From the NCBI GenBank assembly GCA_965224195.1, contig OZ245040.1, forward strand, positions 1,440,001-1,504,000: a DNA stretch of 64,000 bases. Direction: 5' to 3'. The stretch comes from Nitrosopumilus sp. (lineage in GTDB: Archaea; Thermoproteota; Nitrososphaeria; Nitrososphaerales; Nitrosopumilaceae). Positions 3,466 through 63,803 of the stretch are shown here, piece by piece (within the stretch, counting starts at the first letter, position 1; each line of letters opens with the position of its first letter). The position numbers were made by a program, and so were the translations under genes. The notes below the pieces were generated by a model that was not told the origin of the DNA, did no database searches, and saw only the letters and a list, made by a program, of their open reading frames with translations.

Positions 3466-4473
3466 TTGATTTACAATTCATTTGATAATCCAGGATTAGT
3501 CAAAGTACTAACATTTTTGCAAACTCATAATACAGAATATCTGTCAGGTCAAGATTTGAGTGATGTATTAAGAATTAGCAGAGTGGCAGTTTGGAAACAC
3601 ATTAAAAAAATTCAAGAATTAGGATATAATGTAGAATCAAAACAAAAGCTAGGATACAAATTAATTTCAAATTCAGAATTATTACTTCCTTGGGAAATTA
3701 CTTCAAATTTAAAAACAAAAATCATGGGAAAACAAGCATATTATTTTGATTCAATTGATTCAACTCAGAATCAGGCATTAAAAATGGCCCAGGATGTTAC
3801 AAATGACGGGACAGTAATAGTTGCATCAGAACAGACCGGAGGAAAAGGAAGAGACGGGAGAAAATGGATGTCACCAAAAGGAGGAATATGGATTTCAATA
3901 ATATTACATCCAAAATTTGATATTTCAATAACAACATTATTTCCAATTGCATCATCACTTGCATTATCATTAGCAATTGAAAAAATATTTTCAATTAAAC
4001 CAGAATTAAAATGGCCCAATGACTTGACAATAAACGGCAAAAAAGTGGCAGGGATGTTGGTGGACGTATCACTAGAATCAAACAAAATTGAAAATTTAGT
4101 TTTAGGCGTTGGAATAAATTTTGATGTAAATACAAAACAGATTGAAAAGTCACTAAAGGGAACACCTAATTTTTATGGCGTATCATCTCTCAGTGACCAA
4201 AAAAAAAATGTCAGACCAATTCAATTAGTCCAGACATTTTTGTTAGAATTAGAAAAAATTTACAAGGCTCTAAATGAAAGACAAATTAAAAAAATAATTT
4301 CAGAATGGACATCAAGATCATCAACAATAGGAAAAAATGTAGAATTGAACACAGTTGATTCTAAAATTAAGGGAAAGGCGATAAAAATTGACGATGATGG
4401 TTCTCTTATAGTCTCAGAGAACAATAAAATTCACAAAGTGATTGCAGGGGACATAATTCATTTATCAAAATAA
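3466..4473 (+). CDS. birA: Bifunctional biotin--[acetyl-CoA carboxylase] ligase / repressor
   Basis: N-terminal HTH (SGQDLS...SRVAVWKHI), DSTQ, QTGGKGRDGRKW, KWPND, KKVAGML, GVGIN. Confidence 0.95.
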   Translation: MIYNSFDNPGLVKVLTFLQTHNTEYLSGQDLSDVLRISRVAVWKHIKKIQELGYNVESKQKLGYKLISNSELLLPWEITSNLKTKIMGKQAYYFDSIDSTQNQALKMAQDVTNDGTVIVASEQTGGKGRDGRKWMSPKGGIWISIILHPKFDISITTLFPIASSLALSLAIEKIFSIKPELKWPNDLTINGKKVAGMLVDVSLESNKIENLVLGVGINFDVNTKQIEKSLKGTPNFYGVSSLSDQKKNVRPIQLVQTFLLELEKIYKALNERQIKKIISEWTSRSSTIGKNVELNTVDSKIKGKAIKIDDDGSLIVSENNKIHKVIAGDIIHLSK

Positions 4474-4475
4474 TA

Positions 4476-4702
4476 TTATTTTTTCTTTGATTTTGATTTT
4501 TTTGAAGAATTCGGAATTAGTCTATATTGTTCTTTTAGAATTTCCTTAAGATCTTTTTGTATATCAAAAACAGTTGAGAGCAATTCTTCTAGGGTTTTAG
4601 AATATTTACCATATGCATCTATCAGTTCGGTTTTCTTTTCATCAGATTTTGAAAGATATTCATTTGAACGTAACAAATTTGCAGATTCAATCATTTCAGG
4701 AA
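4476..4702 (-). pseudogene. 3' part of a coiled-coil host gene interrupted by the CRISPR-Cas island
   Basis: Reads PEMIESANLLRSNEYL... and joins in frame with 26812-26920 across the duplicated TTTCAGGAA. Confidence 0.8.
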
Positions 4703-4771
4703 AGGATGCTTGACGACTGAAACATCACAAATACCGTGATATGACCATGATATTAACAATCTTCATTTTCT

Positions 4772-4853
4772 CAGTCATAAGCTACAGTCATAAGCTAATT
4801 AACGAAATATCACAACCCAGTCATAAGCTAAATCACGGCTCAGTCATAAGCTA
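4772..4853 (+). repeat. Four copies of the 13-bp motif CAGTCATAAGCTA
   Basis: Exact copies at 4772, 4785, 4818 and 4841, about 70 bp inside the island's left end. Confidence 0.9.
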
Positions 4854-5465
4854 AACTATTTCATTATTTTTGTGTGATGATTTTTTTTGAGAATTTTCAT
4901 TAAGCGTATATTCATGCTCATTTTATGCTATTATCTTACACTGATTACATAGGTGTTTGACTGGATATTGTCATGCAGTGAATGATCATCTTCATTCTTC
5001 ATTTCTAATTACTCAAAATTGCATTAAAGTTTGTATACTTGATTGATTAATGTATATTGTCATACCCCATTCATTGCATCCATCTCAGATGGATTTGAAT
5101 TGTTTGACAAACGTCGACCTGATTGTAGAGTTGATCATTCTACAATCGCTTAATTTAGTAAGAAATATCGTGTCATCCCCAGATGATCATTTCCTGATAG
5201 CTGACAATTATGTTTCTGTGTGGAAGTGGGAATAGTCTTCATTTTCTTATATCACAAACTTTTTTTAAATATTATAATTTCAGTTACAATCAAAATAATT
5301 CCAATAATATAAAATACTATTCTTTGTATAATTCCATCCAATACCCATTCAAAGAATTGGTTTGTGGTAATTGGGGAATCTGGTTGAAACATAACAAACC
5401 TTGCAATTACAAGCAACATTAAAAAATTATAGAAAAATAATACTCCAATGGTTACAAACGCAGTT

Positions 5466-6115
5466 TCAAAAAAAATAACGGTATTGATTTATTGTGCCTC
5501 TTAATGTCGTCTTGTATTTGATTGCAATCCAGATCATGATCAAAGTTGGAAGTGCTATTAATGATAAAAAATAATTCAGATGGATTTTAAGATTATTAAA
5601 CATTAGAGGCTGCTGTTCCATTCCTTCGGCAGTACTAGTCCATTCACCGATACTGTATCTAGTATCCCATGAGTGAGAGAAATAGTTTGTCTGAGATACC
5701 AAAATCATCGTAAATAATACTGAATATGCAGATACAAGCGTTATTGTAGAAATTATCAGAGGTTTATTCCCCGTTGAGTTTGTAATCTTTTTTTGGATCA
5801 TAAAAGCTGCAAATCCTGCCACCACCCCAACAATAATCCCAGCCATTAGTCCCAGAACTTGAATAAATGGAATTACTAAAGATGCAACCTGTAATTACAC
5901 TCAATAACATCCCTGATGCTTTGATGCTTTTAGATGCCCATGAAAACAAGAACCAAGACATTAGAGAAAAAAATAAGAGTCAAGGTCATAACTATACTAG
6001 CACTAACTGAGAACCCATCTACCATAACTCTACCGCTTATATGAAATTGCAATACCTGAATCAAAGGTAGGATCACAAGAAACGCTGAAATTATCATCAA
6101 AAGTCTAGTTTTCAT
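5466..6115 (-). pseudogene. Frameshifted multi-pass membrane protein
   Basis: Three overlapping hydrophobic ORFs (5930-6115, 5764-5961, 5466-5846) beginning MKTRLLMII. Confidence 0.6.
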
Positions 6116-6125
6116 TTTCTTATTT

Positions 6126-6300
6126 TATTGAAAATAGTCTGTTCCACATTTAGGGCATTTTGACAAGTTTTTAGGATAGCGATGTTTGCAGTTAAAACAC
6201 ATCTAATTCATATTTTGGCCACGTGATTCTGAATCCTTTTTCCATAGAAAATAGACTATAACTGCAATTACTGCAACGCCTAGAATTATTGGTCATACCA
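6126..6300 (-). pseudogene. Remnant of a small membrane-anchored zinc-ribbon protein
   Basis: Minus strand encodes CFNCKHRYPKNLSKCPKCGTDYFQ, preceded by a disrupted hydrophobic segment. Confidence 0.4.
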
Positions 6301-6543
6301 TAAAACTACACAATACTTTGATCATAAATCTTTTATTATCAAGAATGATAACAATATTCAAAAAGGAATACCTACACTTTATGCATCAATTTATGAGTCC
6401 ATTTAAAAGTCAACTGAGAATTCTATTTAGTGCTACATTTATCAAAGATTGCCATTGTTCAACATAAAAAGGAATTTATAAAATAAAATATTAGAACATG
6501 CGAAAACAATTAAAATGATCATGTCCTAGATTAGTTGTTTTAG

Positions 6544-7893
6544 ATGCTAGCATATGAACTATTTCATAATAATAAGAATTCTCCTACAAATGATCAAAAA
6601 AGTCAATTTCCGATCAAGAAAATATTCTATAAACACAACAAAATCACAATTGATGAAAAAAAACTAGATGGTTATGGCTCAAAAACTACAAAAAAAACAA
6701 AACAATTACAAGAATGGCTACAAATGCCTTTGAATACCATTGATGTTCAAAAACTCAATTTACCTGATTTTAGAACAGGTAGTGCTGCAGTAAATCCATA
6801 CATTGAGGTTTATGGTTATTTGAAAACAACTAAACTTACCCTCTCAATTGGAAAAAAATCCAACAAAATTATTCATACTTTAGATTTTACCAATAATGAT
6901 AAAATTTCTTCTGATCCAAAGGAAAAAATCACATTAAAGTTAGATAAAAAAAATTATTTTTTAAACTCTAACACATTATTCTCAGAATATGTTTCCTCTG
7001 GAATTATAGATGATAATGGTTCTTTAAATGTCAAAGTGTATGATAAAATAATCCGAAAATTTCTAGAATCTGCAAAAAAACAGAAACCAGAGACTATTAA
7101 CAGATTTAATAGTGTATCATTCCGAATTTACATTTTACCTGATAACTCCACAATAGAATATCAAAAACAAACAAAAAAAGAAAATTCGGAGCAAACTACT
7201 TTTACTGATTATTTTGGAAATACTGTTTCAGAATATGCATCAACTCCCACAAAGAACACAAAATTCTTGACTTATGATGATCCTGCATTTTCCATAAACT
7301 GTATGAAAGAGAAGAATTTTTACAAAAATTTGGGCATTGGTGACAGCAGTTTAACAAAAGTATTTACTAATAAAACTAAAACATTTAAGATTTCTAATTT
7401 AGATTGGACTTTTTTTGATCTTGAAAATCCTGATTTCGAATTTAAGGAAACTGGAAAAGGCATATTGACACAGCTTTATGAAAACTATCGTAAGCTTTCA
7501 AAAGATAAAGGACCTACATCTCAATCACAACTAAAGGTAATTTGTATCAGAGAGAAATACGCAAAACAAGAGTTGTTAATTGACGAGAATTTGACAATGG
7601 ATAAAATGAAAAATATGTTTTCAAAATTCGAAGATATTCCTCCATCATGCTTAGAAGATGTGTTAATTGATAAATCTAACGAAAATCCTATTTGGAATAC
7701 GTATCTTTATGTTGTAAAGAACTTCCTTGCAGCAAATAAAATACCAAAAAATTACTTATTATCACATTTTAACAAGATACTAAAACAAAAAAGATATGAT
7801 TGGATAAAACTTGGAGATAAATCTGAACAAGAGAATTTTTTTCTAAAATCTGATTTTTGTTTAAAACATTTGTCTATATCAAATAACGCTTAA
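6544..7893 (+). CDS. cas8b: Type I-B Cascade large subunit Cas8b, N-terminal part
   Basis: 449-aa ORF heading the cas operon upstream of Csh2-type cas7. The call is mainly positional. Confidence 0.65.
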   Translation: MLAYELFHNNKNSPTNDQKSQFPIKKIFYKHNKITIDEKKLDGYGSKTTKKTKQLQEWLQMPLNTIDVQKLNLPDFRTGSAAVNPYIEVYGYLKTTKLTLSIGKKSNKIIHTLDFTNNDKISSDPKEKITLKLDKKNYFLNSNTLFSEYVSSGIIDDNGSLNVKVYDKIIRKFLESAKKQKPETINRFNSVSFRIYILPDNSTIEYQKQTKKENSEQTTFTDYFGNTVSEYASTPTKNTKFLTYDDPAFSINCMKEKNFYKNLGIGDSSLTKVFTNKTKTFKISNLDWTFFDLENPDFEFKETGKGILTQLYENYRKLSKDKGPTSQSQLKVICIREKYAKQELLIDENLTMDKMKNMFSKFEDIPPSCLEDVLIDKSNENPIWNTYLYVVKNFLAANKIPKNYLLSHFNKILKQKRYDWIKLGDKSEQENFFLKSDFCLKHLSISNNA

Positions 7894-7964
7894 TTTTTAA
7901 TTGTTATCAATCATGATAAGGTTCTGTGTAATCGTCGAGGGATAACATAAAATACGGATCTTCT

Positions 7965-9089
7965 TTAAATTGAATTTTCCTTATGTAAACTAGCATTTTG
8001 AATAATGGTTTTCCATTTGTTTTTACCATCTATTTCTACCATTGATGCTTCTGCTGGTGTTCTGCCTTGTAATGCTTCATGCTTTTTTGTGAAATTATAG
8101 TACACTTTCATTCCCTCACTAAGTGGTGTATCCATTCTTTTTAATCCTCTGAATACCTTTTCTCTGTCTCTAATCGTGCCATTGATTCGTTCCATCTTAT
8201 TATTATTATCACAGTCTCTTTTACCTGCAATGTGAATGTGTCTAACGTGGTTTGTGTCCTTTCCAAATACTTTCTTGCTTGATTTCATGTAGGCTTGTAA
8301 ACCGTCAGTAATGAAATTTCTTGGAGATTTCCCAGCTTGTCTTTTGGTTAACTCAAGTAAATTATCAGTATTATGATGAAACTTGTTGTCTGCCATGTCA
8401 CTAGCCAACCAATAGCGTGTATCATCATCCATACTTGCAAATAGGCAACATTGTTTCCCATCTACTTTAACCCATACTTCGTCAGCCCTAAACCAGTTCC
8501 CAACTCTTGGAACTATGCCATTAAGATAAACAGAAGTCATTTTAGAATATTGAGTTATCCAGTTGTAAATGGTCTTAAACGATACATCAACACCTAACAT
8601 CTCATAATGATCTGCAATCTTTCTTACGGACATTCCTGAATAATACATCTGTAATGCTCCAGTTATGGTATTCTCATTTGATTGTTTTTTCTCAAATCCA
8701 AAGTTTGAACTGAATTTCTTCCTGCAGTCCAAACACTCAAAGATTCTAACCTTACCTGACTTGTTCTTTCTGAATCTATCTTTTCTTATTCTACCTGAAT
8801 CGCAATACTTGCACAAAGATAGCTTACTTCTTTCCATAATTCGAAATATATTGTTTCTATAACACTTGTTTTTCTTGATTATCTCTAAGACTATTTTGAT
8901 GTGTTTGCAATCAGATTTTCTACAATTATGATCCTTGCATTGACATTTTAATCCATTTTCAGTTTTTGATACAATGTATCTGTTTTCTGGGGTTGATTGT
9001 GATCTAACGGAAAAACTGTTTTGGTCAATCTGTGAGCAGTAACCTACAATTTTCATCATGGATTGAGCTTTTTGTTTTCTTTGATTCAT
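7965..9089 (-). CDS. IS6/IS240-type DDE transposase with N-terminal SWIM-like and Zn-ribbon motifs
   Basis: CQC...CKH, CKYC/CLDC, HTH (GMSVRKIADH, TIYNWI), and ADEVWVK / ITDGL / NNKMERINGTIRDR catalytic segments. Confidence 0.9.
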   Translation of the reverse strand: MNQRKQKAQSMMKIVGYCSQIDQNSFSVRSQSTPENRYIVSKTENGLKCQCKDHNCRKSDCKHIKIVLEIIKKNKCYRNNIFRIMERSKLSLCKYCDSGRIRKDRFRKNKSGKVRIFECLDCRKKFSSNFGFEKKQSNENTITGALQMYYSGMSVRKIADHYEMLGVDVSFKTIYNWITQYSKMTSVYLNGIVPRVGNWFRADEVWVKVDGKQCCLFASMDDDTRYWLASDMADNKFHHNTDNLLELTKRQAGKSPRNFITDGLQAYMKSSKKVFGKDTNHVRHIHIAGKRDCDNNNKMERINGTIRDREKVFRGLKRMDTPLSEGMKVYYNFTKKHEALQGRTPAEASMVEIDGKNKWKTIIQNASLHKENSI

Positions 9090-9134
9090 ACATACACCTC
9101 AAAAATTAATAATAACTTGCAATAATACAAATAT

Positions 9135-9200
9135 GAGGGCTCAGATAGCTTTGCTGTCATCATACAGATGTCAGATCGCCAGAGACTCATCATAGCCCTC
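9135..9200 (-). ncRNA. Box C/D sRNA-like element upstream of the transposase
   Basis: Minus strand reads gagggct-ATGATGA-gtctctggcgat-CTGA-catctgt-ATGATGA-cagcaaagctat-CTGA-gccctc: consensus C, D', C' and D boxes, two 12-nt guides and a terminal stem. Confidence 0.8.
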
Positions 9201-9280
9201 AATTCTCTTGTATTTATGTAACTTATTATTAGTTAACATCTATAATAATATAACTAATATTAAGTTAAATTAAAATAGGA

Positions 9281-9520
9281 ATGAAGAAATGTAAAACTAT
9301 GACAATCTCAATTAAAACCATAAGACAGATAAATTATCTATATTTCTCATATTCTGATAATAAAACTCATAAGCAAAAATTCATTTGTTGTGGAGTAAGA
9401 TCAAAAAAAGAATCCAAGATTAAGGCATTGGAGCTTGAGCTCAATTATTTACAGGAACAAATAGCCTCATTTTTAAGAGAATCTAGTAAGATTAAGGATC
9501 AGTTACAAAATCTAAAATGA
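9281..9520 (+). CDS. Small basic protein divergent from the transposase (possible DNA-binding accessory protein)
   Basis: 79 aa with a beta-rich N-terminus (IKTIRQINYLYFSY) and coiled-coil C-terminus; lies inside the IS ends. Confidence 0.55.
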   Translation: MKKCKTMTISIKTIRQINYLYFSYSDNKTHKQKFICCGVRSKKESKIKALELELNYLQEQIASFLRESSKIKDQLQNLK

Positions 9521-9667
9521 ACGAGATGTTAACTTGGAGTAAAAAAATGTTCAAGTCTCAAAGATCACACATAACCCTGAAAATTCATTCATAAGTTTAC
9601 AAAATATGATCGACTTGTTTGATTTTACATCCGATACTATTATAAACAGAAATTAGAAAAATAAAAT

Positions 9668-9805
9668 ATGTCTCAAAAATACATTCCCAAATGGGGTGCT
9701 CTTCATACGCAGCAATCCGAAACATTTCAAAAAATATCCTCAAAGAAACACCAAACATGTTCAGATTACGGTGATTTTATGAAGTGGTTAGATGACAAAA
9801 AATAA
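9668..9805 (+). CDS. Putative antitoxin (45 aa)
   Basis: MSQKYIPKW...DYGDFMKWLDDKK; overlaps the start of the downstream toxin-like ORF; below the ORF-track length cutoff. Confidence 0.45.
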   Translation: MSQKYIPKWGALHTQQSETFQKISSKKHQTCSDYGDFMKWLDDKK

Positions 9806-10103
9806 AGCAATATGGAATATTGCTAAAATCCCCAGTTTTAGAAAAGATTTTCAAAATTTACGATTAGTCGAACAATGGAGAGTAAGTCATGCAATAAATA
9901 ATATGAGATATGTAAAAGATCCAACTAGATTATATCCTTATCCACAATGTGATAATTGTCCAAATAATATGTATCTTTTTGGAATTTCTGATGATGGTGT
10001 TGGTAATAAAGGATTAGAAATACAAATAATAGTTTCAAAGGATACTCATACTCTATACCCATTTAATTGCAGACATTCTACATTTGAAAAAAATGAAAAC
10101 TAG
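9792..10103 (+). CDS. Putative RelE/ParE-like toxin
   Basis: 103 aa; N-terminal W-x-I...PSFRKDFQNL...VSHAINNM...DP pattern resembles the RelE/ParE fold. Confidence 0.45.
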   Translation: MTKNKAIWNIAKIPSFRKDFQNLRLVEQWRVSHAINNMRYVKDPTRLYPYPQCDNCPNNMYLFGISDDGVGNKGLEIQIIVSKDTHTLYPFNCRHSTFEKNEN

Positions 10104-10327
10104 ACTAGAAAAAGCAAGATATCAAACTTCACAAATTTATCCAAAACTTTTACAACTACATGATATTTTAGAAAAAATTAAATGTTATAGTAAGCGATAT
10201 AGTTTTGGTCTCAACAGAATATTTTGTCGTTAGAAAATATGTTAAAAAAATGTTCAAGTCTCAAAGATCACACATAACCCATGATAACAACCTTTATTTC
10301 TAATGGGAGAACGTAGTAATTATTAAT

Positions 10328-10663
10328 TTGCTAATAATAAATCAAAATGAGGAATTTGCAGAAAAAATTGGCCAGATTGCTAGAATTTACATAGAATTTA
10401 AACAGGATCATGACGAAAATGATAATTCTTTATCTGATATTTTGACTTACTCAAAATACGATCGGGAAAAACTACGTTTTGTCGTAAAACGTGTAGGACT
10501 GGGTGTGCAATTATCTAAAATCATAGATGCATCTAAAAAAGATGTGACAAAAAATATCAGCCGTTTACAACCTAAAGAAGAAATTGAAGATGATGTGGCA
10601 TCAAAGGATTATTCATATTTCTTTTTTAAGGGATATTATACTAACATGGAGAAAGTAGCATGA
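10328..10663 (+). CDS. Cas8b C-terminal / Cas11-like small subunit
   Basis: Helical 111-aa ORF ending YFFFKGYY, overlapping the cas7 start (ATGA); start codon uncertain. Confidence 0.65.
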   Translation: MLIINQNEEFAEKIGQIARIYIEFKQDHDENDNSLSDILTYSKYDREKLRFVVKRVGLGVQLSKIIDASKKDVTKNISRLQPKEEIEDDVASKDYSYFFFKGYYTNMEKVA

Positions 10664-11589
10664 CTACTGAAATCTTGTTCTACTATGAATCAATGCAGAA
10701 TCCAAATGGCGATCCTGGATTTGAAAATCAACCGAGGTTGATGCCTGATGATACTATAATGGTAACTGATGTACGAATCAAGCGAACTATGCGAGATTAT
10801 GCAAGAGATGTAAAAGGCGAAACATTGTTTGTAGATTATGATAAAAATGGTAATGCAATCGCAGCAGACGGCAAAGCCGAAGAGATTACAGGTTCTCTTA
10901 GCGGAGATGTAATTGGAAAACTATTAGAAAAAACATTTGATGTACCTCTTTTTGGTGCACTTGTACCAATAAGGAAGAAAGGTTCTGACAATGAAGGCAG
11001 TTCAGAAAAATTGACAGGCCCATTACAATTTGGAATTTCTAGAAGTGTAAATAGAGTTCAGATAATTAATCCAACCATCGTTGGTAGATTTGTTGGCAAA
11101 GAAAAGACAAAAGGAAAACAATTTTCTACATTTGGAAAATTCTACTCTGTAGAGTATGCGCTAATTAAGGTGCAGGGAGCGATAAACCCTAGAAACTTGA
11201 CAAAATATGCAGACGATAAAACAATAATGAAGAAATTCACTGAAAAAGTATCTATGATTCATGACTGTTTGTGGAATGGCACAAATCAGTTAATCACAAG
11301 ATCAAAGTATCCACAACGAAGCATCCTCTATATTGATGTGGACTATAAAGACAGAATCTATAATGACTTGCCAAAGCTAGTTGATGAAAACCAATCTCTT
11401 AAAGAAATGGCAAAAAGTCTTGGTGATTCACCGTTTATTTTCTCAAATCTAATTGATATAATGTCAAAGAGAAAATCTGAAGTTAATATAATTAGAATTC
11501 GTGGTGCTGAAGATATTTCAGATGATGTACAGAATTTGGCATCAGACTTAGAAAAGAAAGGGCTCAAAGTAGAAATTCTTTCGGATTGA
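10660..11589 (+). CDS. cas7: Type I-B Cas7 (Csh2)
   Basis: NPNGDP...NQPR, VTDVRIKRTMRDY, DVPLFGA, TGPLQF. Confidence 0.95.
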   Translation: MTTEILFYYESMQNPNGDPGFENQPRLMPDDTIMVTDVRIKRTMRDYARDVKGETLFVDYDKNGNAIAADGKAEEITGSLSGDVIGKLLEKTFDVPLFGALVPIRKKGSDNEGSSEKLTGPLQFGISRSVNRVQIINPTIVGRFVGKEKTKGKQFSTFGKFYSVEYALIKVQGAINPRNLTKYADDKTIMKKFTEKVSMIHDCLWNGTNQLITRSKYPQRSILYIDVDYKDRIYNDLPKLVDENQSLKEMAKSLGDSPFIFSNLIDIMSKRKSEVNIIRIRGAEDISDDVQNLASDLEKKGLKVEILSD

Positions 11590-17180: not shown

Positions 17181-20100
17181 GTCAAAATGACAAATCCATC
17201 ATAACAAGGATTGAAACTTGCAGATTTGGGCGGATGGACTACATCTACAGAAGTCAAAATGACAAATCCATCATAACAAGGATTGAAACTACTATATTCC
17301 TTCTAGTGCAGAGTATGAAGATTTGTGTCAAAATGACAAATCCATCATAACAAGGATTGAAACATTTAGTTTACGCTAACTATGAATACAATGAAAGGTC
17401 AAAATGACAAATCCATCATAACAAGGATTGAAACGTGTAATCGATTTGCACACCGGCGCAGAAATTGCCAGTCAAAATGACAAATCCATCATAACAAGGA
17501 TTGAAACTTCCGATAATGTCATCTTTTCGCGTTTGGAAATTGTCAAAATGACAAATCCATCATAACAAGGATTGAAACAAAATATCATGACGGATATTGT
17601 AACTCTCATATGCGGTCAAAATGACAAATCCATCATAACAAGGATTGAAACGTCAGGTACGGAATGTTAACATATGAATATACTAAGTCAAAATGACAAA
17701 TCCATCATAACAAGGATTGAAACATTGGTAGGGGCTTGTCATCAGTTATGCCAAGATGTCAAAATGACAAATCCATCATAACAAGGATTGAAACTTTACT
17801 GCTGTTAAATAAATTGATGGTTGCCTAGCAGTCAAAATGACAAATCCATCATAACAAGGATTGAAACTTGTTAGTGTGGCAAAATACAAACGTGGACTAA
17901 AAAGTCAAAATGACAAATCCATCATAACAAGGATTGAAACCGCGTTATTTTCCGGCGGCAAGGATTCCATGACAACGGGTCAAAATGACAAATCCATCAT
18001 AACAAGGATTGAAACGACATTATTGCCCACACCTATAATCAAACCTCCTAGTCAAAATGACAAATCCATCATAACAAGGATTGAAACCTAAGAGAATAGA
18101 GCGTGTTGGTACCGTCAATTAGGTCAAAATGACAAATCCATCATAACAAGGATTGAAACCACACTGGCGCAACGATTGCATCTGATATACTCGTGTCAAA
18201 ATGACAAATCCATCATAACAAGGATTGAAACATTCAGGATGTGATGGGCAAGACAAAGGATACAGAGTCAAAATGACAAATCCATCATAACAAGGATTGA
18301 AACGATATATTTCTGTGGGTTTTGCTTGTGAGAATTGAGTCAAAATGACAAATCCATCATAACAAGGATTGAAACTGACTTTACTGTACATCATAATTTC
18401 TCTCCCGCATTGTCAAAATGACAAATCCATCATAACAAGGATTGAAACTCTACGACGTCTTGCTCGAAAGCATCTCTCACTGCAGTCAAAATGACAAATC
18501 CATCATAACAAGGATTGAAACTAAATTCCATGCAAAATATCCAGATGCTGGTACCAGGTCAAAATGACAAATCCATCATAACAAGGATTGAAACTTTCCC
18601 ATTGCAATGTATCCTTTTGCTGACGTCGGGTCAAAATGACAAATCCATCATAACAAGGATTGAAACTTGAATATCTTGGATGGCCTCTTGGGTCTTCAAG
18701 TAAGTCAAAATGACAAATCCATCATAACAAGGATTGAAACCTCTGCAGCCATCAGTAGTCACCGTCTCCGCTAGAGTCAAAATGACAAATCCATCATAAC
18801 AAGGATTGAAACTTATGGATGATTTCGATAACAAAGTCTACGTCTACAGTCAAAATGACAAATCCATCATAACAAGGATTGAAACCAATCTGTAGGGTCC
18901 ACAGTAGAAGTGAACCAGTATGTCAAAATGACAAATCCATCATAACAAGGATTGAAACTTGTAGTGTAGAGTGCTGTTTTTTGCATCGTGTCAAGTCAAA
19001 ATGACAAATCCATCATAACAAGGATTGAAACTTCCAGGTACCATATGTCCTTTCGAGAATACTCGTTTTCCGTTTAAAAGTCAAAATGACAAATCCATCA
19101 TAACAAGGATTGAAACTTGCCTGGCTCCAGGTATTTCGGTCTGCTATGAATTGCATTGATCGAGTCAAAATGACAAATCCATCATAACAAGGATTGAAAC
19201 AAGGTGTAATATCGCAAGATGATATTATAGCTGGAATAGGTCAAAATGACAAATCCATCATAACAAGGATTGAAACTTTGACTTGCTACCAAAACAGTAG
19301 CATGGACATACTAGGTCAAAATGACAAATCCATCATAACAAGGATTGAAACTCTCAAACTGAGTATCCCCATTTGCCTGAAAGAGGAAGTCAAAATGACA
19401 AATCCATCATAACAAGGATTGAAACTTTGCTTGATTTTGTGGGCAGAAACTGTGGCAGCCAAAGTCAAAATGACAAATCCATCATAACAAGGATTGAAAC
19501 CAAAGTCTACACGACATCAGCCACAGTAGGTAAATGTCAAAATGACAAATCCATCATAACAAGGATTGAAACTGAAATTGAAATTCCTATCGACTTTGCA
19601 TTAATCCGAGTCAAAATGACAAATCCATCATAACAAGGATTGAAACTGTTACGGATGATGCCAAAGACAAAATCTACGTCTGTCAAAATGACAAATCCAT
19701 CATAACAAGGATTGAAACAACAGTCCTTGTCTGCCTTTAAAGGAATACCTTATGTCAAAATGACAAATCCATCATAACAAGGATTGAAACGTAATAATGT
19801 GCAAGGCATGCATGACATAACAAACGTCAAAATGACAAATCCATCATAACAAGGATTGAAACTCCCGATGCCAATCTGTTGCAGCATGTTCTCTCAGGTC
19901 AAAATGACAAATCCATCATAACAAGGATTGAAACAGGCAGACGTCTTTGATTTGACAGGTTTCTTATTTTGTCAAAATGACAAATCCATCATAACAAGGA
20001 TTGAAACTGAGAAGTCATGGATTATCAACTGACACTGTTACAGTCAAAATGACAAATCCATCATAACAAGGATTGAAACTCTAAGATGATATCTGGCAGT

Positions 20101-23100
20101 TCTTCGATTTTCATGTCAAAATGACAAATCCATCATAACAAGGATTGAAACTGATATCTAACGTCATGATATCACAGCCTGCGTTGTCAAAATGACAAAT
20201 CCATCATAACAAGGATTGAAACCTATGCATAGGCATATTTTTGCTATACCTAGAAAAGTCAAAATGACAAATCCATCATAACAAGGATTGAAACATGTTG
20301 ATGCACTAAGACCTGTGGACTCATATTACGTCAAAATGACAAATCCATCATAACAAGGATTGAAACATACGGAAAAAGAAGCCCGATTATTTTGGGCTAC
20401 TTACGGTGTCAAAATGACAAATCCATCATAACAAGGATTGAAACGATGCCAAGTCAATGCCGTACATGAACCGATGATCAGTCAAAATGACAAATCCATC
20501 ATAACAAGGATTGAAACACGATTGTTCCCTTTCTGTATTCTTCCTGCTCTGAGTCAAAATGACAAATCCATCATAACAAGGATTGAAACAGACGCGAATG
20601 AGACAGCTTGAAGGATTTCAAAGAATGTCAAAATGACAAATCCATCATAACAAGGATTGAAACTTTGCCTGCCGCCTCTTCTTTTTGTCTTTCCATCTTC
20701 GTCAAAATGACAAATCCATCATAACAAGGATTGAAACCGACAATAAGAACTGATGATATTATTAAATCAGCTGCAAGTCAAAATGACAAATCCATCATAA
20801 CAAGGATTGAAACCGCCTAGCATTGCATACGACAGAACTATAACGAGTCAAAATGACAAATCCATCATAACAAGGATTGAAACAACTGATATTTCGACTG
20901 ACATTAACGGCGTGTTGAAGTCAAAATGACAAATCCATCATAACAAGGATTGAAACCCGATGACAATGATGTAACAATGCACATCACACGCAGTCAAAAT
21001 GACAAATCCATCATAACAAGGATTGAAACTCGTTGCCAAGAAAATACCACAACGAAGTACCTACCGTGTCAAAATGACAAATCCATCATAACAAGGATTG
21101 AAACCAGGTTTGCACCTCTCAGGTCTGCGTTTTGCAGGTTGTCAAAATGACAAATCCATCATAACAAGGATTGAAACCGATTGAAGCGCCGGTCTTTGTA
21201 TCGTCATATGTTGTCAAAATGACAAATCCATCATAACAAGGATTGAAACATATTATCACAGCTATATAGGCTGCCTTTAGCTGACCTTGTCAAAATGACA
21301 AATCCATCATAACAAGGATTGAAACACAGCGGGTCCAGTCTGGCTAGGTTGGGAAATCTGTAGTCAAAATGACAAATCCATCATAACAAGGATTGAAACA
21401 TAGAAATTCCAAAGATACTGTTGTTATCTACAGGTCAAAATGACAAATCCATCATAACAAGGATTGAAACCACCGACTCCAAAATGATATAGGTATAGCC
21501 TTGTCAAAATGACAAATCCATCATAACAAGGATTGAAACAATTGAAGGCTTTGTTAGTTTTCTTGATATTTTCAGTCAAAATGACAAATCCATCATAACA
21601 AGGATTGAAACACGTTGCTTACGGCTTGGTGCCATTTTCCTGCCACAGGTCAAAATGACAAATCCATCATAACAAGGATTGAAACATTATGCAGGTGAGG
21701 ACGTATATCAATCGCCAAGTCAAAATGACAAATCCATCATAACAAGGATTGAAACTACATATCATCACTATGACACGTATTGCAAATTCTGGGTCAAAAT
21801 GACAAATCCATCATAACAAGGATTGAAACCATGTGCTGCTGTTACTTCTGCTGCTGATGCTGCTGTCAAAATGACAAATCCATCATAACAAGGATTGAAA
21901 CTACAGAAGAACGGATGCAACGCCGCGAAACTCTACGGTCAAAATGACAAATCCATCATAACAAGGATTGAAACATTCGGCCATAGTCATAGTGTTATAG
22001 TGCTGTTGGGTCAAAATGACAAATCCATCATAACAAGGATTGAAACACGATAGTCCGTTTTCTGACCCAGATTTTATTTTAGGTCAAAATGACAAATCCA
22101 TCATAACAAGGATTGAAACCGAAAACAATCATCTGTGTATATGTCTGACGTGGCGGTCAAAATGACAAATCCATCATAACAAGGATTGAAACTTAAATCT
22201 GCCAAGTGAACCAAGTCCGCCATTGCGAGTCAAAATGACAAATCCATCATAACAAGGATTGAAACTTTGTGGACCTGATTTATAATTTATAATCCTACGA
22301 GGTCAAAATGACAAATCCATCATAACAAGGATTGAAACCTAGATAATCTAGGTTATTGGACTGATAATAGATGCAGTCAAAATGACAAATCCATCATAAC
22401 AAGGATTGAAACTATTGACTAATCAATGAGCTCAACAGAAACATTCCATGTCAAAATGACAAATCCATCATAACAAGGATTGAAACACAAGTGAACCAAT
22501 TATTATGTTAAGATGGATGACAGTCAAAATGACAAATCCATCATAACAAGGATTGAAACTTGTTGTAAGAAATGTTACGGCTCTGCCACCTTTTGGTCAA
22601 AATGACAAATCCATCATAACAAGGATTGAAACCAATTACTACAGATGTATACGGACTGATGTACATGGTCAAAATGACAAATCCATCATAACAAGGATTG
22701 AAACATGGTACCTGGGCAATTAGATCAAATCGCAGCAGCGGTCAAAATGACAAATCCATCATAACAAGGATTGAAACTCAGGTTTGCACCTTGCAGATAT
22801 GCACCTATCAGGTCAAAATGACAAATCCATCATAACAAGGATTGAAACACGTATCAGCTTACATCACTGACGGTACAAGAACAGTCAAAATGACAAATCC
22901 ATCATAACAAGGATTGAAACAACGGAAACATATCAACGAGGTGGGAACGGCAGAAGTCAAAATGACAAATCCATCATAACAAGGATTGAAACACGGCAAT
23001 TTGGTTGGTACCTTTTTTTTATTAGGCCAGGTCAAAATGACAAATCCATCATAACAAGGATTGAAACTGGCTTTGCACGACACCATGGGATTGCGCCAGG

Positions 23101-26100
23101 AGAAGTCAAAATGACAAATCCATCATAACAAGGATTGAAACATTGAACGCAGTGTTGGAACTGTATCATCTGTAAAAGTCAAAATGACAAATCCATCATA
23201 ACAAGGATTGAAACACACGACGGATAATAAATTACAAGAGTGGCCCCCAAAGTCAAAATGACAAATCCATCATAACAAGGATTGAAACGGTTGGAATCGA
23301 ATCGTGTTCTAGACATACAGCGTTGTCAAAATGACAAATCCATCATAACAAGGATTGAAACCGTTAAAAATGCAAAAAGTGCTGCACTTGTAGACACAGT
23401 CAAAATGACAAATCCATCATAACAAGGATTGAAACTACCGAAGAACGGATACAACGCCAAGAAAATCTGTGTCAAAATGACAAATCCATCATAACAAGGA
23501 TTGAAACATTTTGACGCGTGTATGTTTTCGATTATTACATTATGTCAAAATGACAAATCCATCATAACAAGGATTGAAACCGTTGCCAGCTTGTAAATGG
23601 CTTGATTTTGTTCATGTCAAAATGACAAATCCATCATAACAAGGATTGAAACACAACATAATCGTTGGGTAAAAATTAACATCGCCAATGTCAAAATGAC
23701 AAATCCATCATAACAAGGATTGAAACTCTACGACCTCTGGCTCAAATGCATCTCTCACCGCAGTCAAAATGACAAATCCATCATAACAAGGATTGAAACC
23801 AACAATGTGACAAAAAAATGGAAAATGGGCCCAAGTCAAAATGACAAATCCATCATAACAAGGATTGAAACTTCGTGCAAAACATCAATTATCATTTTGT
23901 TACCAAGGTCAAAATGACAAATCCATCATAACAAGGATTGAAACAATGACTAATGTAACATTATCACAAAAAGTAACAAAGTCAAAATGACAAATCCATC
24001 ATAACAAGGATTGAAACTCCGTACGAATAAACCAACGCTCGTATCGGTCATGTCAAAATGACAAATCCATCATAACAAGGATTGAAACTAATTTAATTCG
24101 TGTTTGATCAACAGCTACAGAAGGTAGTCAAAATGACAAATCCATCATAACAAGGATTGAAACTTGTATGATCTTTCAAAGTCATAGGGTGTCAGCATAG
24201 TCAAAATGACAAATCCATCATAACAAGGATTGAAACTTAGTTGTATTAGATTTCAGTGTTCTTGCTATACTGTCAAAATGACAAATCCATCATAACAAGG
24301 ATTGAAACGGATGGCTTGCTTCTTTTGTACGCTTTTACCGAAGTCAAAATGACAAATCCATCATAACAAGGATTGAAACTGAATGGCATTGATCGAGGAT
24401 CCATTAGATTTCCTTGTCAAAATGACAAATCCATCATAACAAGGATTGAAACAAGACACCTGGCGTGGGCGATAGAATCGAATCTGAAAAAGTCAAAATG
24501 ACAAATCCATCATAACAAGGATTGAAACATTATTTTTCCTATCTCGTTGAAATTAACTTCTAAGTCAAAATGACAAATCCATCATAACAAGGATTGAAAC
24601 TGGATAATCATGAAGGCGACATTATGCGTGATATAGTCAAAATGACAAATCCATCATAACAAGGATTGAAACAGAAGAAATGAATCAGTCATTCTTGTTT
24701 GGGCCTCTGTCAAAATGACAAATCCATCATAACAAGGATTGAAACTTGGTTCAGAATTTTCATCTAGGATGCTCAACTAAGTCAAAATGACAAATCCATC
24801 ATAACAAGGATTGAAACTGTGAAAAGTCATCCATTTTTCTTTTGTTTTTTATTCGCTGTCAAAATGACAAATCCATCATAACAAGGATTGAAACTCACAC
24901 ACCTCATGGCCATTTCACCTTTTCCATGTCAAAATGACAAATCCATCATAACAAGGATTGAAACTGTTGTTGTAATGTTACGACTTCATCGAACATTTGA
25001 AGAGTCAAAATGACAAATCCATCATAACAAGGATTGAAACCGACTTCAGGAACGCGAGCTATACAGGCTTGGCTAGGTCAAAATGACAAATCCATCATAA
25101 CAAGGATTGAAACTGCAGGAATGTACGGAAAGTTCCCACGCAACTGCCAGTCAAAATGACAAATCCATCATAACAAGGATTGAAACCATTGAATTAATCA
25201 AAAAAAATATGGGATTACCCAAAGTCAAAATGACAAATCCATCATAACAAGGATTGAAACACAAGCTCTGCTCCTAATCCTGGTGCTACTTCTGCTGTCA
25301 AAATGACAAATCCATCATAACAAGGATTGAAACTGTGATCATATTCATCTCTATGTCTGCCGTGCTCCAAGTCAAAATGACAAATCCATCATAACAAGGA
25401 TTGAAACCATTGTCTCCATCAGGCCAGGAAACATTTCCAAAGGTCAAAATGACAAATCCATCATAACAAGGATTGAAACGCTTTAACTCCCAGTTCTTCC
25501 ATCATTGCAATTCGTAGTCAAAATGACAAATCCATCATAACAAGGATTGAAACTGAGATGATATATTTGCCAAGATTTGGGTAATATGGTCAAAATGACA
25601 AATCCATCATAACAAGGATTGAAACATTTGGGTGACTCAAACTATGAGGAGCTGTACATGCAGGTCAAAATGACAAATCCATCATAACAAGGATTGAAAC
25701 ATGTAGTATTATCATCAATCAAATTTCATTTCCCCAGGTCAAAATGACAAATCCATCATAACAAGGATTGAAACTTCACTATCAGGGATATTCAGGTCCC
25801 TTATTTTTGTGTCAAAATGACAAATCCATCATAACAAGGATTGAAACCAGCGTGAAAAAGAATATCGACAAAGACCAGATGGTCAAAATGACAAATCCAT
25901 CATAACAAGGATTGAAACGATGTACAAATCGAATCAAACAATGCGGCACGTATAGTCAAAATGACAAATCCATCATAACAAGGATTGAAACCGTATGCCT
26001 CAGTATTTTGCATTCGGGTTCTTAGGGTCAAAATGACAAATCCATCATAACAAGGATTGAAACATGGGAACAACTAGTCCACAAATACAAATCTCCACGG

Positions 26101-26783
26101 TCAAAATGACAAATCCATCATAACAAGGATTGAAACAGGACACCCTAAAGGCAACTGACCCAAAGTTTACGGGGTCAAAATGACAAATCCATCATAACAA
26201 GGATTGAAACTGGCCTTGCACGACACCATGGGATTGCGCCAGGAAAGTCAAAATGACAAATCCATCATAACAAGGATTGAAACATTTCTTTGTCAAGCTG
26301 AATTAATTCGATTCTGTGTCAAAATGACAAATCCATCATAACAAGGATTGAAACATAAGTTCCCATCCCCTATTGCCATTCCCTCAGGTCAAAATGACAA
26401 ATCCATCATAACAAGGATTGAAACGGATGAATGACAGCACTGTCGGGCCGCCACTTGATAGTCAAAATGACAAATCCATCATAACAAGGATTGAAACTCA
26501 GAGCAAGAAAACTACCGAAAGGGAACAATCAGTCAAAATGACAAATCCATCATAACAAGGATTGAAACAGCAATATCGATAAAAAGATTGCAATTCCAAA
26601 AGGTCAAAATGACAAATCCATCATAACAAGGATTGAAACAACATTCCTTGACGCCCTTTGAAGGTATATCTTATGTCAAAATGACAAATCCATCATAACA
26701 AGGATTGAAACTATCCGATTGTTCCATCTGATGAATATCTCATGTTGTCAAAATGACAAATCCATCATAACAAGGATTGAAAC
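17181..26783 (+). CRISPR. CRISPR array, 37-bp repeat GTCAAAATGACAAATCCATCATAACAAGGATTGAAAC, ~132 repeats / ~131 spacers (32-48 bp, mostly 34-38)
   Basis: Manual count. Repeats look invariant including the last one; AATCC/GGATT hairpin; ATTGAAAC 3' handle. Confidence 0.99.
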
Positions 26784-38701: not shown

Positions 38702-41697
<2,996 letters not shown>

Positions 41698-41850
41698 TAT
41701 ATTCAGCCATATATTACACGACTATGCACGACGATCATTGCAAGCCACCGGTAAGTGGCTCACTACATCCTTCATACACCACTTTCGTGATGCATTGCAT
41801 CGATGATTTCAATGTGAAGATTATGTACACCCGTACACTTTCCATGTCTA

Positions 41851-43321
<1,471 letters not shown>

Positions 43322-63305: not shown

Positions 63306-63803
63306 TGAATTACTTTGGTATAGCAGTGTTGTTATAACTCTTATTTCAAATTTTTCAATTTAGAGAAAATTCATATCCCTTGACAAGCTAGCAGAACCTG
63401 ATATGCAATAATGTTATTGCCAAAAATTATTTTTAAAAGGCGATGATGAGCCGCATGCTTTTTGATTTTAAACAACAAAACTAGGCTATTTTTTTAGTAA
63501 AAAATTTTACTCTGTAATTAAGACATCATCTCTCGTCTGTTCTGAGCATTTTACCAGTAGTGCAGAATGCAATAGAGGAATCATCATTACTTGGATCATT
63601 CAGAGCCAGGGGACAAGGGAATAGAGAACTGATGCATATAGTAATATAATGACCAATATAATGAACCAATCATTAGCCAAACTCATGGGCCGCAATCATA
63701 TAATTTTGTGTTTGTGTCTTCATGTTCCAATCCCGATTGCGGCCCCATCAAAGCATTAAAAATAAATCAACCTGGCATAAGGTCAACTTTTAATCAAGTA
63801 TTG

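Follow-up and report, generated by a model that had tools for sequence, protein, structure and literature searches.

We analysed a 64,000-nucleotide (nt) stretch of DNA from a Nitrosopumilus sp. (contig OZ245040.1; hereafter, the window, with positions counted from its first letter). Within it, an insertion sequence (IS) of the IS6 family carries a predicted box C/D small RNA (sRNA) gene on the minus strand at 9135–9200, a short distance upstream of its transposase gene (Table 1). Read from 9200 to 9135, the letters are gagggct-ATGATGA-gtctctggcgat-CTGA-catctgt-ATGATGA-cagcaaagctat-CTGA-gccctc, exactly the C/D′/C′/D layout with two 12-nt guides and a stem that a preliminary description of this DNA had reported. 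Box C on the 5′ side and box D on the 3′ side are joined by a closing stem of 6 base pairs (bp; GAGGGC/GCCCTC); the internal D′ and C′ boxes show no deviation from the consensus, and each of the two spacers is 12 nt long, as in archaeal C/D sRNAs. The predicted RNA is about 62–66 nt long, with boxes C and D as a kink-turn (K-turn) and D′ and C′ as an internal kink-loop (K-loop).

This arrangement is far from chance. A regular expression for the full C/D′/C′/D layout matches the 2.07-Mb genome once, at 9135–9200, and gives no match in any of five shuffles; by its sequence, this is the only fully canonical C/D sRNA of the genome. Under relaxed criteria, C1:859544 and C1:1697448 emerge as plausible candidates that are less canonical, and the remaining matches fall in apparent acidic coding repeats (0–1 matches in block shuffles). 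The host encodes the core proteins of C/D ribonucleoproteins (RNPs): fibrillarin (293.9 bits), Nop5 (226.6 bits) and L7Ae (92.3 bits).

Table 1 Features of the C/D RNA, its leader and its transposon in the window, and of C/D arrays in other genomes
Feature	Position	Strand	Remarks
Box C/D sRNA	9135–9200	−	Consensus boxes read from the letters; stem halves 9195–9200 / 9135–9140
Box C	9187–9193	−	ATGATGA
D′ guide	9175–9186	−	12 nt, gtctctggcgat
Box D′	9171–9174	−	CTGA
Box C′	9157–9163	−	ATGATGA, exact
D guide	9145–9156	−	12 nt, cagcaaagctat
Box D	9141–9144	−	CTGA
Conserved leader motif ATTAATTTTTGAGGTG	9095–9110	−	Includes Shine–Dalgarno-like GAGGTG at 9095–9100
External helix, 3′ arm	9104–9130	−	27-nt inverted repeat, 81% complementary, encloses the C/D core
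External helix, 5′ arm	9208–9234	−	Overlaps AT-rich TATA-like tract, putative promoter and start
Right-side target-site duplication	7912–7919		CATGATAA on +, TTATCATG on −
Right inverted repeat	7920–7959		Core GGTTCTGTGTAATC read inwards on +; 0-mismatch pattern match
IS6-family DDE transposase, 374 amino acids	7965–9089	−	Pfam and NCBIfam matches
Open reading frame (ORF), 79 amino acids, divergent from the C/D–transposase unit	9281–9520	+	No family match
Inner left inverted repeat copy	9540–9577		38 bp, 100% identical to 10243–10280
Passenger segment between left repeats, 665 bp	9578–10242		Contains 103-amino-acid ORF, 9792–10103 (+)
Outer left inverted repeat	10243–10279		GGTTATGTGTGATC... 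read inwards on −
Left-side target-site duplication	10280–10287		Same 8-mer as 7912–7919
C/D arrays, units ~130–150 bp	L146 (G080 C2) 5740–7170; L162 (G274) 4044–4916; L050 (G014); L054 (G369); L157 (G016)

The transposon and its ends

The right end of the element is placed at 7920, where GGTTCTGTGTAATC starts and beyond which other IS copies of the genome and the genus show no homology. Two inverted copies of this core, with 12 of 14 bases in common, lie at 9563–9576 and 10266–10279 within an exact 38-bp direct repeat. A perfect 8-bp duplication (TTATCATG on the minus strand) directly abuts both ends, at 7912–7919 and 10280–10287, and the flank of the inner left repeat does not match it. Because the duplication matches the outer and not the inner left repeat, the mobile unit at the last move was 7920–10279 (2,360 bp). 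From left to right it comprises the duplicated left repeat, the 665-bp passenger, the 79-amino-acid ORF, the C/D RNA and the transposase gene, and the RNA lies inside the element whichever left end is chosen. The preliminary description had placed the RNA within the IS ends and 46 nt from the transposase gene: the inverted repeats at 7920 and 10279, with their identical flanking 8-mers, do enclose it, and its position just upstream of the ATG stands, although the exact distance is 45 nt (9134–9090). The duplicated left end and the 2.36-kb size had gone unnoticed.

The transposase matches the Pfam family DDE_Tnp_IS240 (PF13610) with 43 bits against a cut-off of 27, and its best NCBIfam model is that of the IS6 family (95.5 bits, E = 3.5e-27, below the equivalog cut-off of 125). 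An IS6/IS240-type DDE enzyme is combined here with the terminal repeats and 8-bp duplication of that family; by eye, the N terminus also carries a CxC...CxH (SWIM-like) motif. The passenger is 73% identical to C1:660065–660482 elsewhere in the genome and may be a separate small mobile unit. The contigs of four sequencing runs break at the 38-bp repeats and contain no informative joint, and one contig of run X4 crosses the 7920 boundary unchanged; neither was used as evidence. Over 9578–10242, the depth of an X4 contig is around fivefold that of its surroundings, and the contig enters different sequence at 10248.

A probable C/D leader module between promoter and start codon

The preliminary description had noted that the stem could be extended by AATACAA/TTGTATT. 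This extension is present and is longer than claimed, forming a bipartite helix (9104–9130 / 9208–9234) with a duplex energy of −19.0 kcal/mol (z = −4.2; 1 of 300 shuffles as stable); the 147-nt leader as a whole folds at −39.4 kcal/mol (z = −2.9). Across 12 leader loci, external helices range from −11 to −30 kcal/mol, and for 9 of the 12 at most 1 of 300 shuffles is as stable. These are per-sequence duplex energies, used in place of an RNAalifold consensus; RNAalifold on the 12 leaders recovers only the 4-bp inner stem because the spacing of the helix varies.

Downstream of the RNA, the motif ATTAATTTTYGAGGT, with its Shine–Dalgarno-like GAGGT, is nearly invariant in all five aligned leaders. 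Some 35 nt separate the K-turn from the Shine–Dalgarno sequence (the C/D sequence ends at 9135 and GAGGTG is at 9095–9100); the K-turn neither abuts nor masks that sequence, which is left unpaired in the predicted fold. Among related transposases, 12 of 19 distinct upstream regions have neither C/D sequence nor leader motif, and in these a TATA-like tract abuts the ATG. In C/D-bearing elements, repeat-flanked TATA modules like those of the C/D-less copies sit upstream of the C/D sequence. Since the tract is found at the ATG in the former and upstream of the RNA in the latter, the C/D sequence and Shine–Dalgarno leader look, by eye, like a module set between promoter and start codon.

At 9 of the 13 leader loci (L212–L217, L224–L229 and L208), the frame set by the ATG of box C runs without a stop through the entire RNA; at 7 of these it terminates with a TGA that overlaps the transposase ATG (ATGA), and the other two frames hold 3–7 stops. 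Eight of the nine open frames have their start at an ATG further upstream (usually ATGAATCAA) that repeats the first transposase codons. At the remaining 4 of the 13 loci the frame closes after four codons. In the window, the upstream ATG is ATA and the helix is kept by compensating changes. For this reason, and because the conserved ‘residues’ coincide with the RNA boxes, we do not rely on the upstream frame.

The same arrangement in other genomes

We searched 269 genomes with a pattern that combines boxes C and D with the conserved leader motif, and obtained 22 matches in 16 genomes (reversed control, 0). Stem and leader features are present in 13 of the 22 matches, and these 13 loci, from 7 Nitrosopumilaceae genomes, have the layout putative promoter, C/D RNA, Shine–Dalgarno leader, transposase. 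A transposase homologue, ranging from full length down to remnants of 35–52 amino acids, lies directly downstream at 9 of the 13 featured loci and at none of the other 9 matches. One copy, in genome G291, is identical at 64 of 66 positions of the C/D RNA; both changes fall in the D′–C′ loop, and all 24 guide bases are the same. There the RNA is followed by a 45-nt linker and a transposase gene, and the DNA outside this unit is unrelated to the window. Around the RNA, identity falls to 63% in the upstream flank, 71% in the linker and 70% in the transposase gene.

Other elements keep the place of the RNA and change its content. In genome G371, a C/D RNA with different guides precedes a transposase of 48% protein identity, within an element of 3,380 bp that has perfect 40-nt terminal repeats, a 7-bp duplication and a cargo comprising a DNA methyltransferase and other genes. 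The element of genome G287 (1,970 bp, 30-nt repeats, a duplication matching at all 7 visible bases) contains a C/D RNA with another stem and other guides. Three genomes, counting the window, therefore have duplication-bounded IS6 transposons with C/D RNAs at the same place. Leader-type loci also swap the whole stem (GAGGGC, GACTGGC, GATTGGC, GAGAGAG or ATGGC). The preliminary description had proposed that boxes kept in front of related transposases while the guides vary would mark a programmable guide, and the C/D leaders show this pattern.

In a tree of 14 transposases (ORFs of ≥300 amino acids; L213 and L227, among other loci, lie outside it and the L084 row was relabelled by hand), the three with a canonical C/D RNA do not form one clade, and one of them is sister (98/98) to a C/D-less copy; the module has been lost repeatedly, exchanged, or both. 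A canonical C/D RNA also persists beside decayed transposase genes, at C1:1278574 (35-amino-acid remnant) and L216 (52 amino acids).

Two near-identical variants of the leader, found via its conserved motif (C1:536262 and C1:1508255, minus strand; L004 and L013), have a small hairpin in place of the D′ box, and the transposase gene downstream is shortened, with DNA homology over around 420 nt and 236 nt, respectively. Decayed and interrupted copies show further structure. In L077/L228 of genome G384, the C/D leader is followed (~1670–2740) by an insertion of higher G+C content with ORFs of 182 and 196 amino acids, which by eye resembles an IS630/Tc1-type element, and another decayed copy, L065, contains (at 1660–1856) a 197-bp unit with IS6-type ends, similar to a miniature inverted-repeat transposable element (MITE). 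A pattern scan of contig records, in which most of the matches listed were bacterial and taken as chance, served only to obtain longer loci.

A wider C/D family with tandem arrays

A second pattern, GGGC-N-ATGATGA...CTGA-GCCC, matches in 13 of 401 Nitrosopumilaceae genomes (reversed control, 0). Tandem arrays of 3–8 units are common among these matches: G080 has 8 units of ~150 bp, G274 has two arrays (five and four matches), G014 has 5 units, and G369 and G016 have 3 each. Adjacent units differ by a few guide bases, as in GACACCAACAGT, GACACACACAGT and GACACCCCCAGT. Arrays of the family occur without a transposase found nearby. The neighbours of copies outside IS elements include genes for an actin/ParM-like (ParM/MreB-like) ATPase, an extra TBP, a nuclease and restriction–modification proteins; these neighbours suggest integrated elements, the limits of which were not set. 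The RNA in the window is best read, from its sequence, as a member of a C/D family that travels on mobile DNA in Nitrosopumilaceae, in IS6 leaders and in arrays.

Beyond the fixed GGGC/GCCC, the stem covaries in 37 sequences (score 0.224 versus 0.081; reached by 0 of 500 shuffles): pair 9–89 is GC in 27 and AU in 7, and pair 10–88 is AU in 29 and UA in 5. A covariance model of the family (R1) built from these sequences has its best genome match at 9135–9200 (75.8 bits), a score that arises by construction as this sequence is among the 37. Further matches of the model in the genome are the leader-type copy next to the 35-amino-acid remnant at C1:1278574, the stem of which is GAGAGAG, and four sites that make up a subfamily with the stem AGAAGGC. 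A weak match of the model at 63428–63498 (+) in the window (19.1 bits) has a box C, a guide similar to the one that pairs with tRNA-Ala in sibling copies and a D′-like TTGA, lacks box D and probably represents a family member in decay.

Guides and targets

Sixty distinct guides of the family, taken from the pattern matches, were scored against the 16S and 23S ribosomal RNA (rRNA) and transfer RNAs (tRNAs) of the genome from which the window comes (the rRNA operon used is at 38704–43321 of the window, on the minus strand), allowing at most one G–U pair, including the fifth base and using 20 shuffles. Runs of at least 10 bp were found for 14 of the 60 guides (shuffle mean 4.7, maximum 6) and runs of at least 11 bp for 6 (mean 0.8, maximum 2). 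The guide GTTCCATTCATT, present in arrays and in an IS leader, pairs with 23S rRNA over 11 bp. Guides of the form ...GGCGTTGAT pair with the 16S stretch GTCAACGCCAGA (helix 31), and GTGAAACGACGT pairs with 16S rRNA near position 1398 (own numbering). Pairing was also found between CAGCCTGTTATT and the 23S sequence GATAACAGGCTC (the same guide occurs at C1:1278574), between GCCGCGTGCAAT and the anticodon loop of tRNA-Ala(UGC), and, over 10–11 bp, between ACTTGTTACGAA (the D guide of the C1:536262 and C1:1508255 variants) and the 3′ region of 16S rRNA. From this complementarity, the family appears to behave as methylation guides. With the fifth base from box D or D′ required to pair, the family as a whole shows rRNA and tRNA complementarity above shuffles, and the window copy does no better than shuffles.

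Interpretation

We consider it likely that 9135–9200 is a genuine C/D guide sRNA gene that is mobilized by an IS6-family transposon and co-transcribed with the transposase. From its place between the promoter region and the Shine–Dalgarno-led transposase gene, the predicted C/D gene is an integral part of the 2,360-bp element. Transcription would begin some 20 nt ahead of the sRNA and continue into the transposase gene. The long external helix would juxtapose boxes C and D, the L7Ae, Nop5 and fibrillarin of the host would assemble on the RNA, and nucleases would trim the transcript down to the protected sRNA. The resulting small RNP (sRNP) would 2′-O-methylate guide-paired RNAs at the fifth base from box D or D′, such that a DNA transposon would ferry methylation-guide genes between genomes. 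Because one transcript would carry both sRNA and transposase, transposase levels probably also depend on how the sRNP is assembled and processed. The preliminary description had offered a transposon-borne orphan guide that recruits host C/D proteins as one of two readings; the duplication-bounded elements, the host proteins and the orphan guides fit it. It had not seen the wider mobile family with siblings that match rRNA and tRNA.

The case against a working guide gene begins with the guides of the window copy. Their pairing with the rRNA and tRNA of their own genome is equalled by 190 of 200 and 195 of 200 shuffles. A search with both guides agrees with the earlier remark that neither has a full complement in 16S or 23S rRNA; the resemblance to tRNA positions 7–12 suggested at the same time comes down to a 7-bp match that 195 of 200 shuffles equal. 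The genome contains no perfect 12-mer target except the antisense strand of the gene itself, near-matches in the genome do not exceed the number expected by chance from a rough calculation by hand, and for three elements the guides have nothing above shuffles on either strand of their own transposon. Because neither guide has a target above chance, both are orphans. The D′ guide has only a 7-bp core, CGCCAGA, in common with the 16S site at which sibling guides pair over 9–11 bp (compared by hand).

Further points on the same side concern the RNA itself. The end-to-end alignment of around 20 archaeal C/D models of Rfam with 9135–9200 counts in favour of a C/D RNA, but all of them score below the gathering threshold; the best, sR1, scores 26.2 bits against 45 (E = 1.2e-4), and no Nitrososphaerota C/D family is among these Rfam matches. 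The related sequences used above are not independent, and the shuffle controls therefore overstate significance. The transcription, processing and RNP binding of this RNA are predictions from sequence, and promoter and start site were read by eye from AT-rich motifs in 13 leaders. The preservation of all 24 guide bases in G291 despite diverged flanks indicates either selection, for a target that we do not recognize, or recent exchange of the module; because the C/D bearers are not one clade, the identity of the guides could reflect such recombination.

A purely cis-acting leader, in which L7Ae or the sRNP bound to the two K-turns controls transposase translation or mRNA stability and the guides serve only as spacers, would account for several of these observations. 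The C/D RNA has a fixed place in diverged elements, ~45 nt before the ATG and ~35 nt before the Shine–Dalgarno sequence, and goes together with a Shine–Dalgarno leader, whereas C/D-less relatives look leaderless; the box C frame is open in 9 of 13 loci and ends over the transposase ATG in 7; the guides in the window are orphans; and, in the available text of a study of Sulfolobus, L7Ae represses its own mRNA through a K-turn in the 5′ untranslated region (UTR) (PMC5539422). Spacers, however, are at odds with 24 of 24 guide bases kept where flanks are only 63–71% identical, with the exact 12-nt spacing, with sibling guides that match rRNA and tRNA far above shuffles, with arrays that have no transposase found nearby and with C/D RNAs that stay canonical after the transposase has decayed. 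The frame is shut after four codons at 4 of the 13 loci, yet two of these have (nearly) full-length transposase genes, and the K-turn does not overlap the Shine–Dalgarno sequence, unlike in Sulfolobus. We regard an exclusively cis-acting role as unlikely; the double K-turn switch for the transposase, which was the second reading of the preliminary description, may or may not operate.

It is distinctly unlikely that the RNA is a neutral passenger, that is, a once-functional guide gene that was captured by the IS, drifted from its targets and is inert here. Guides without targets and a D′ guide reduced to the 7-bp core for the 16S site of its siblings are what drift might leave, but a relic should have gathered changes in boxes or guides, and boxes, stem and guides are intact and the same in G291 despite ~30% divergence around them. 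An analogy with IS110 bridge RNAs, in which the guides would pair with transposon ends and target DNA to direct IS6 insertion, has in its favour a dual-guide RNA in non-coding DNA upstream of a transposase and the proposal, in the available portion of PMC12045711, that box C/D RNPs, IS110 bridge RNAs and TIGR-Tas are related. It is extremely improbable, given that nothing inside the elements is complementary above shuffles and that the transposase is a DDE enzyme without a Nop domain. In the ends and flanks of three elements, no guide has a complement of more than 5 nt, a length that 198–283 of 300 shuffles also reach. We also considered a Tas-like effector: genomes G274, G080, G014, G369 and G384 each encode one Nop-domain gene (host Nop5), none of them at a C/D locus, and no Nop-domain gene lies beside the RNA in the window, the single one of that genome being far from the element.

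Returning to the guide gene, we regard as doubtful a broader version in which mobile elements of Nitrosopumilaceae (IS6 transposons and array-bearing integrated elements) carry programmable 2′-O-methylation guides as cargo and thereby rewrite the rRNA and tRNA modification of their hosts, with sRNP assembly gating the transposase in IS6 elements. The sites rewritten would lie in the decoding centre, the peptidyl-transferase centre and anticodon loops; one possible purpose could be shielding from RNA-cleaving toxins in defence or competition. If true, much of the C/D repertoire of mesophilic Nitrosopumilaceae would have been acquired horizontally on transposons.

Comparison with known systems

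The RNA resembles archaeal C/D sRNAs (Rfam sR1, sR14, sR28 and snoPyro_CD) in its boxes, 12-nt guides, stem and length of about 60 nt, in the presence of host L7Ae, Nop5 and fibrillarin, and in the rRNA and tRNA complementarity of its siblings. It differs from them in lying inside a DNA transposon and a transposase leader, in an unusually long external helix (~20–35 bp), in a mesophilic Nitrosopumilus host with very few such RNAs, in its orphan guides and in Rfam scores below gathering. The nearest parallel is the set of MITE-like C/D sRNA elements of Pyrobaculum calidifontis described in the accessible text of Lui et al. 2018 (PMC6009581), which are flanked by inverted repeats, multi-copy and located in unstable regions, and which were proposed to mobilize guide genes. 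As described there, they are non-autonomous, with degenerate internal boxes and no linked transposase, whereas the window has a canonical C/D RNA beside the transposase of a complete, duplication-bounded IS6 element.

The L7Ae autoregulation described in the available part of Daume et al. 2017 (PMC5539422) likewise places a K-turn in an archaeal Shine–Dalgarno-led leader; there, a single K-turn abuts the Shine–Dalgarno sequence, whereas here a complete dual-guide C/D RNA lies ~35 nt upstream. Faure et al. 2025 (PMC12045711), in the portion accessible to us, link C/D RNPs, IS110 bridge RNAs and guide arrays. Shared with the IS110 bridge RNA and TIGR-Tas systems outlined there are a dual-spacer RNA on a mobile element upstream of a recombinase and related tandem arrays; the window differs in having no nearby Nop effector, guides that match neither ends nor targets, and L7Ae-type K-turn boxes. 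With IS6/IS26, the element shares the DDE transposase, terminal repeats beginning with GGTT and the 8-bp duplication; it is unlike them in its N-terminal zinc-finger extension, its long 5′ non-coding part with an RNA gene, its duplicated left end and its passenger DNA.

How archaeal C/D guide genes multiply, move and acquire targets is an open question, and the available text of a 2021 review describes mobile features of archaeal C/D genes as still to be discovered (PMC7994747). We found no paper on an IS-borne C/D sRNA or on C/D sRNAs of Nitrosopumilus in a literature search that left supplements uncovered and scarcely reached subscription journals; the sole archaeal precedent found, in the accessible text of PMC6009581, is the transposase-less MITE-like element of one Pyrobaculum species. 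By term search, the words sRNA and snoRNA are absent from the available text of surveys of thaumarchaeal and archaeal mobile elements (PMC6563490 and PMC13343696). A canonical guide gene in complete, duplication-bounded transposons of several genomes, with guides that vary and RNAs that in some cases outlast the transposase, provides a concrete route for horizontal spread and domestication. It would also be a naturally occurring case of guide-RNP assembly and expression of a transposase on one presumed transcript, and it suggests that the rRNA and tRNA modification patterns of abundant marine ammonia oxidizers can vary by strain via mobile DNA.

Surroundings of the transposon

The transposon lies between ORFs of 449 and 111 amino acids, the families of which are unassigned. 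A Cas7 gene (10660–11589) begins just past the element, placing it at the edge of a cas locus, and a very large array of clustered regularly interspaced short palindromic repeats (CRISPR) of the Rfam CRISPR-DR7 type, with 132 repeats listed, extends from 17181 to 26783.

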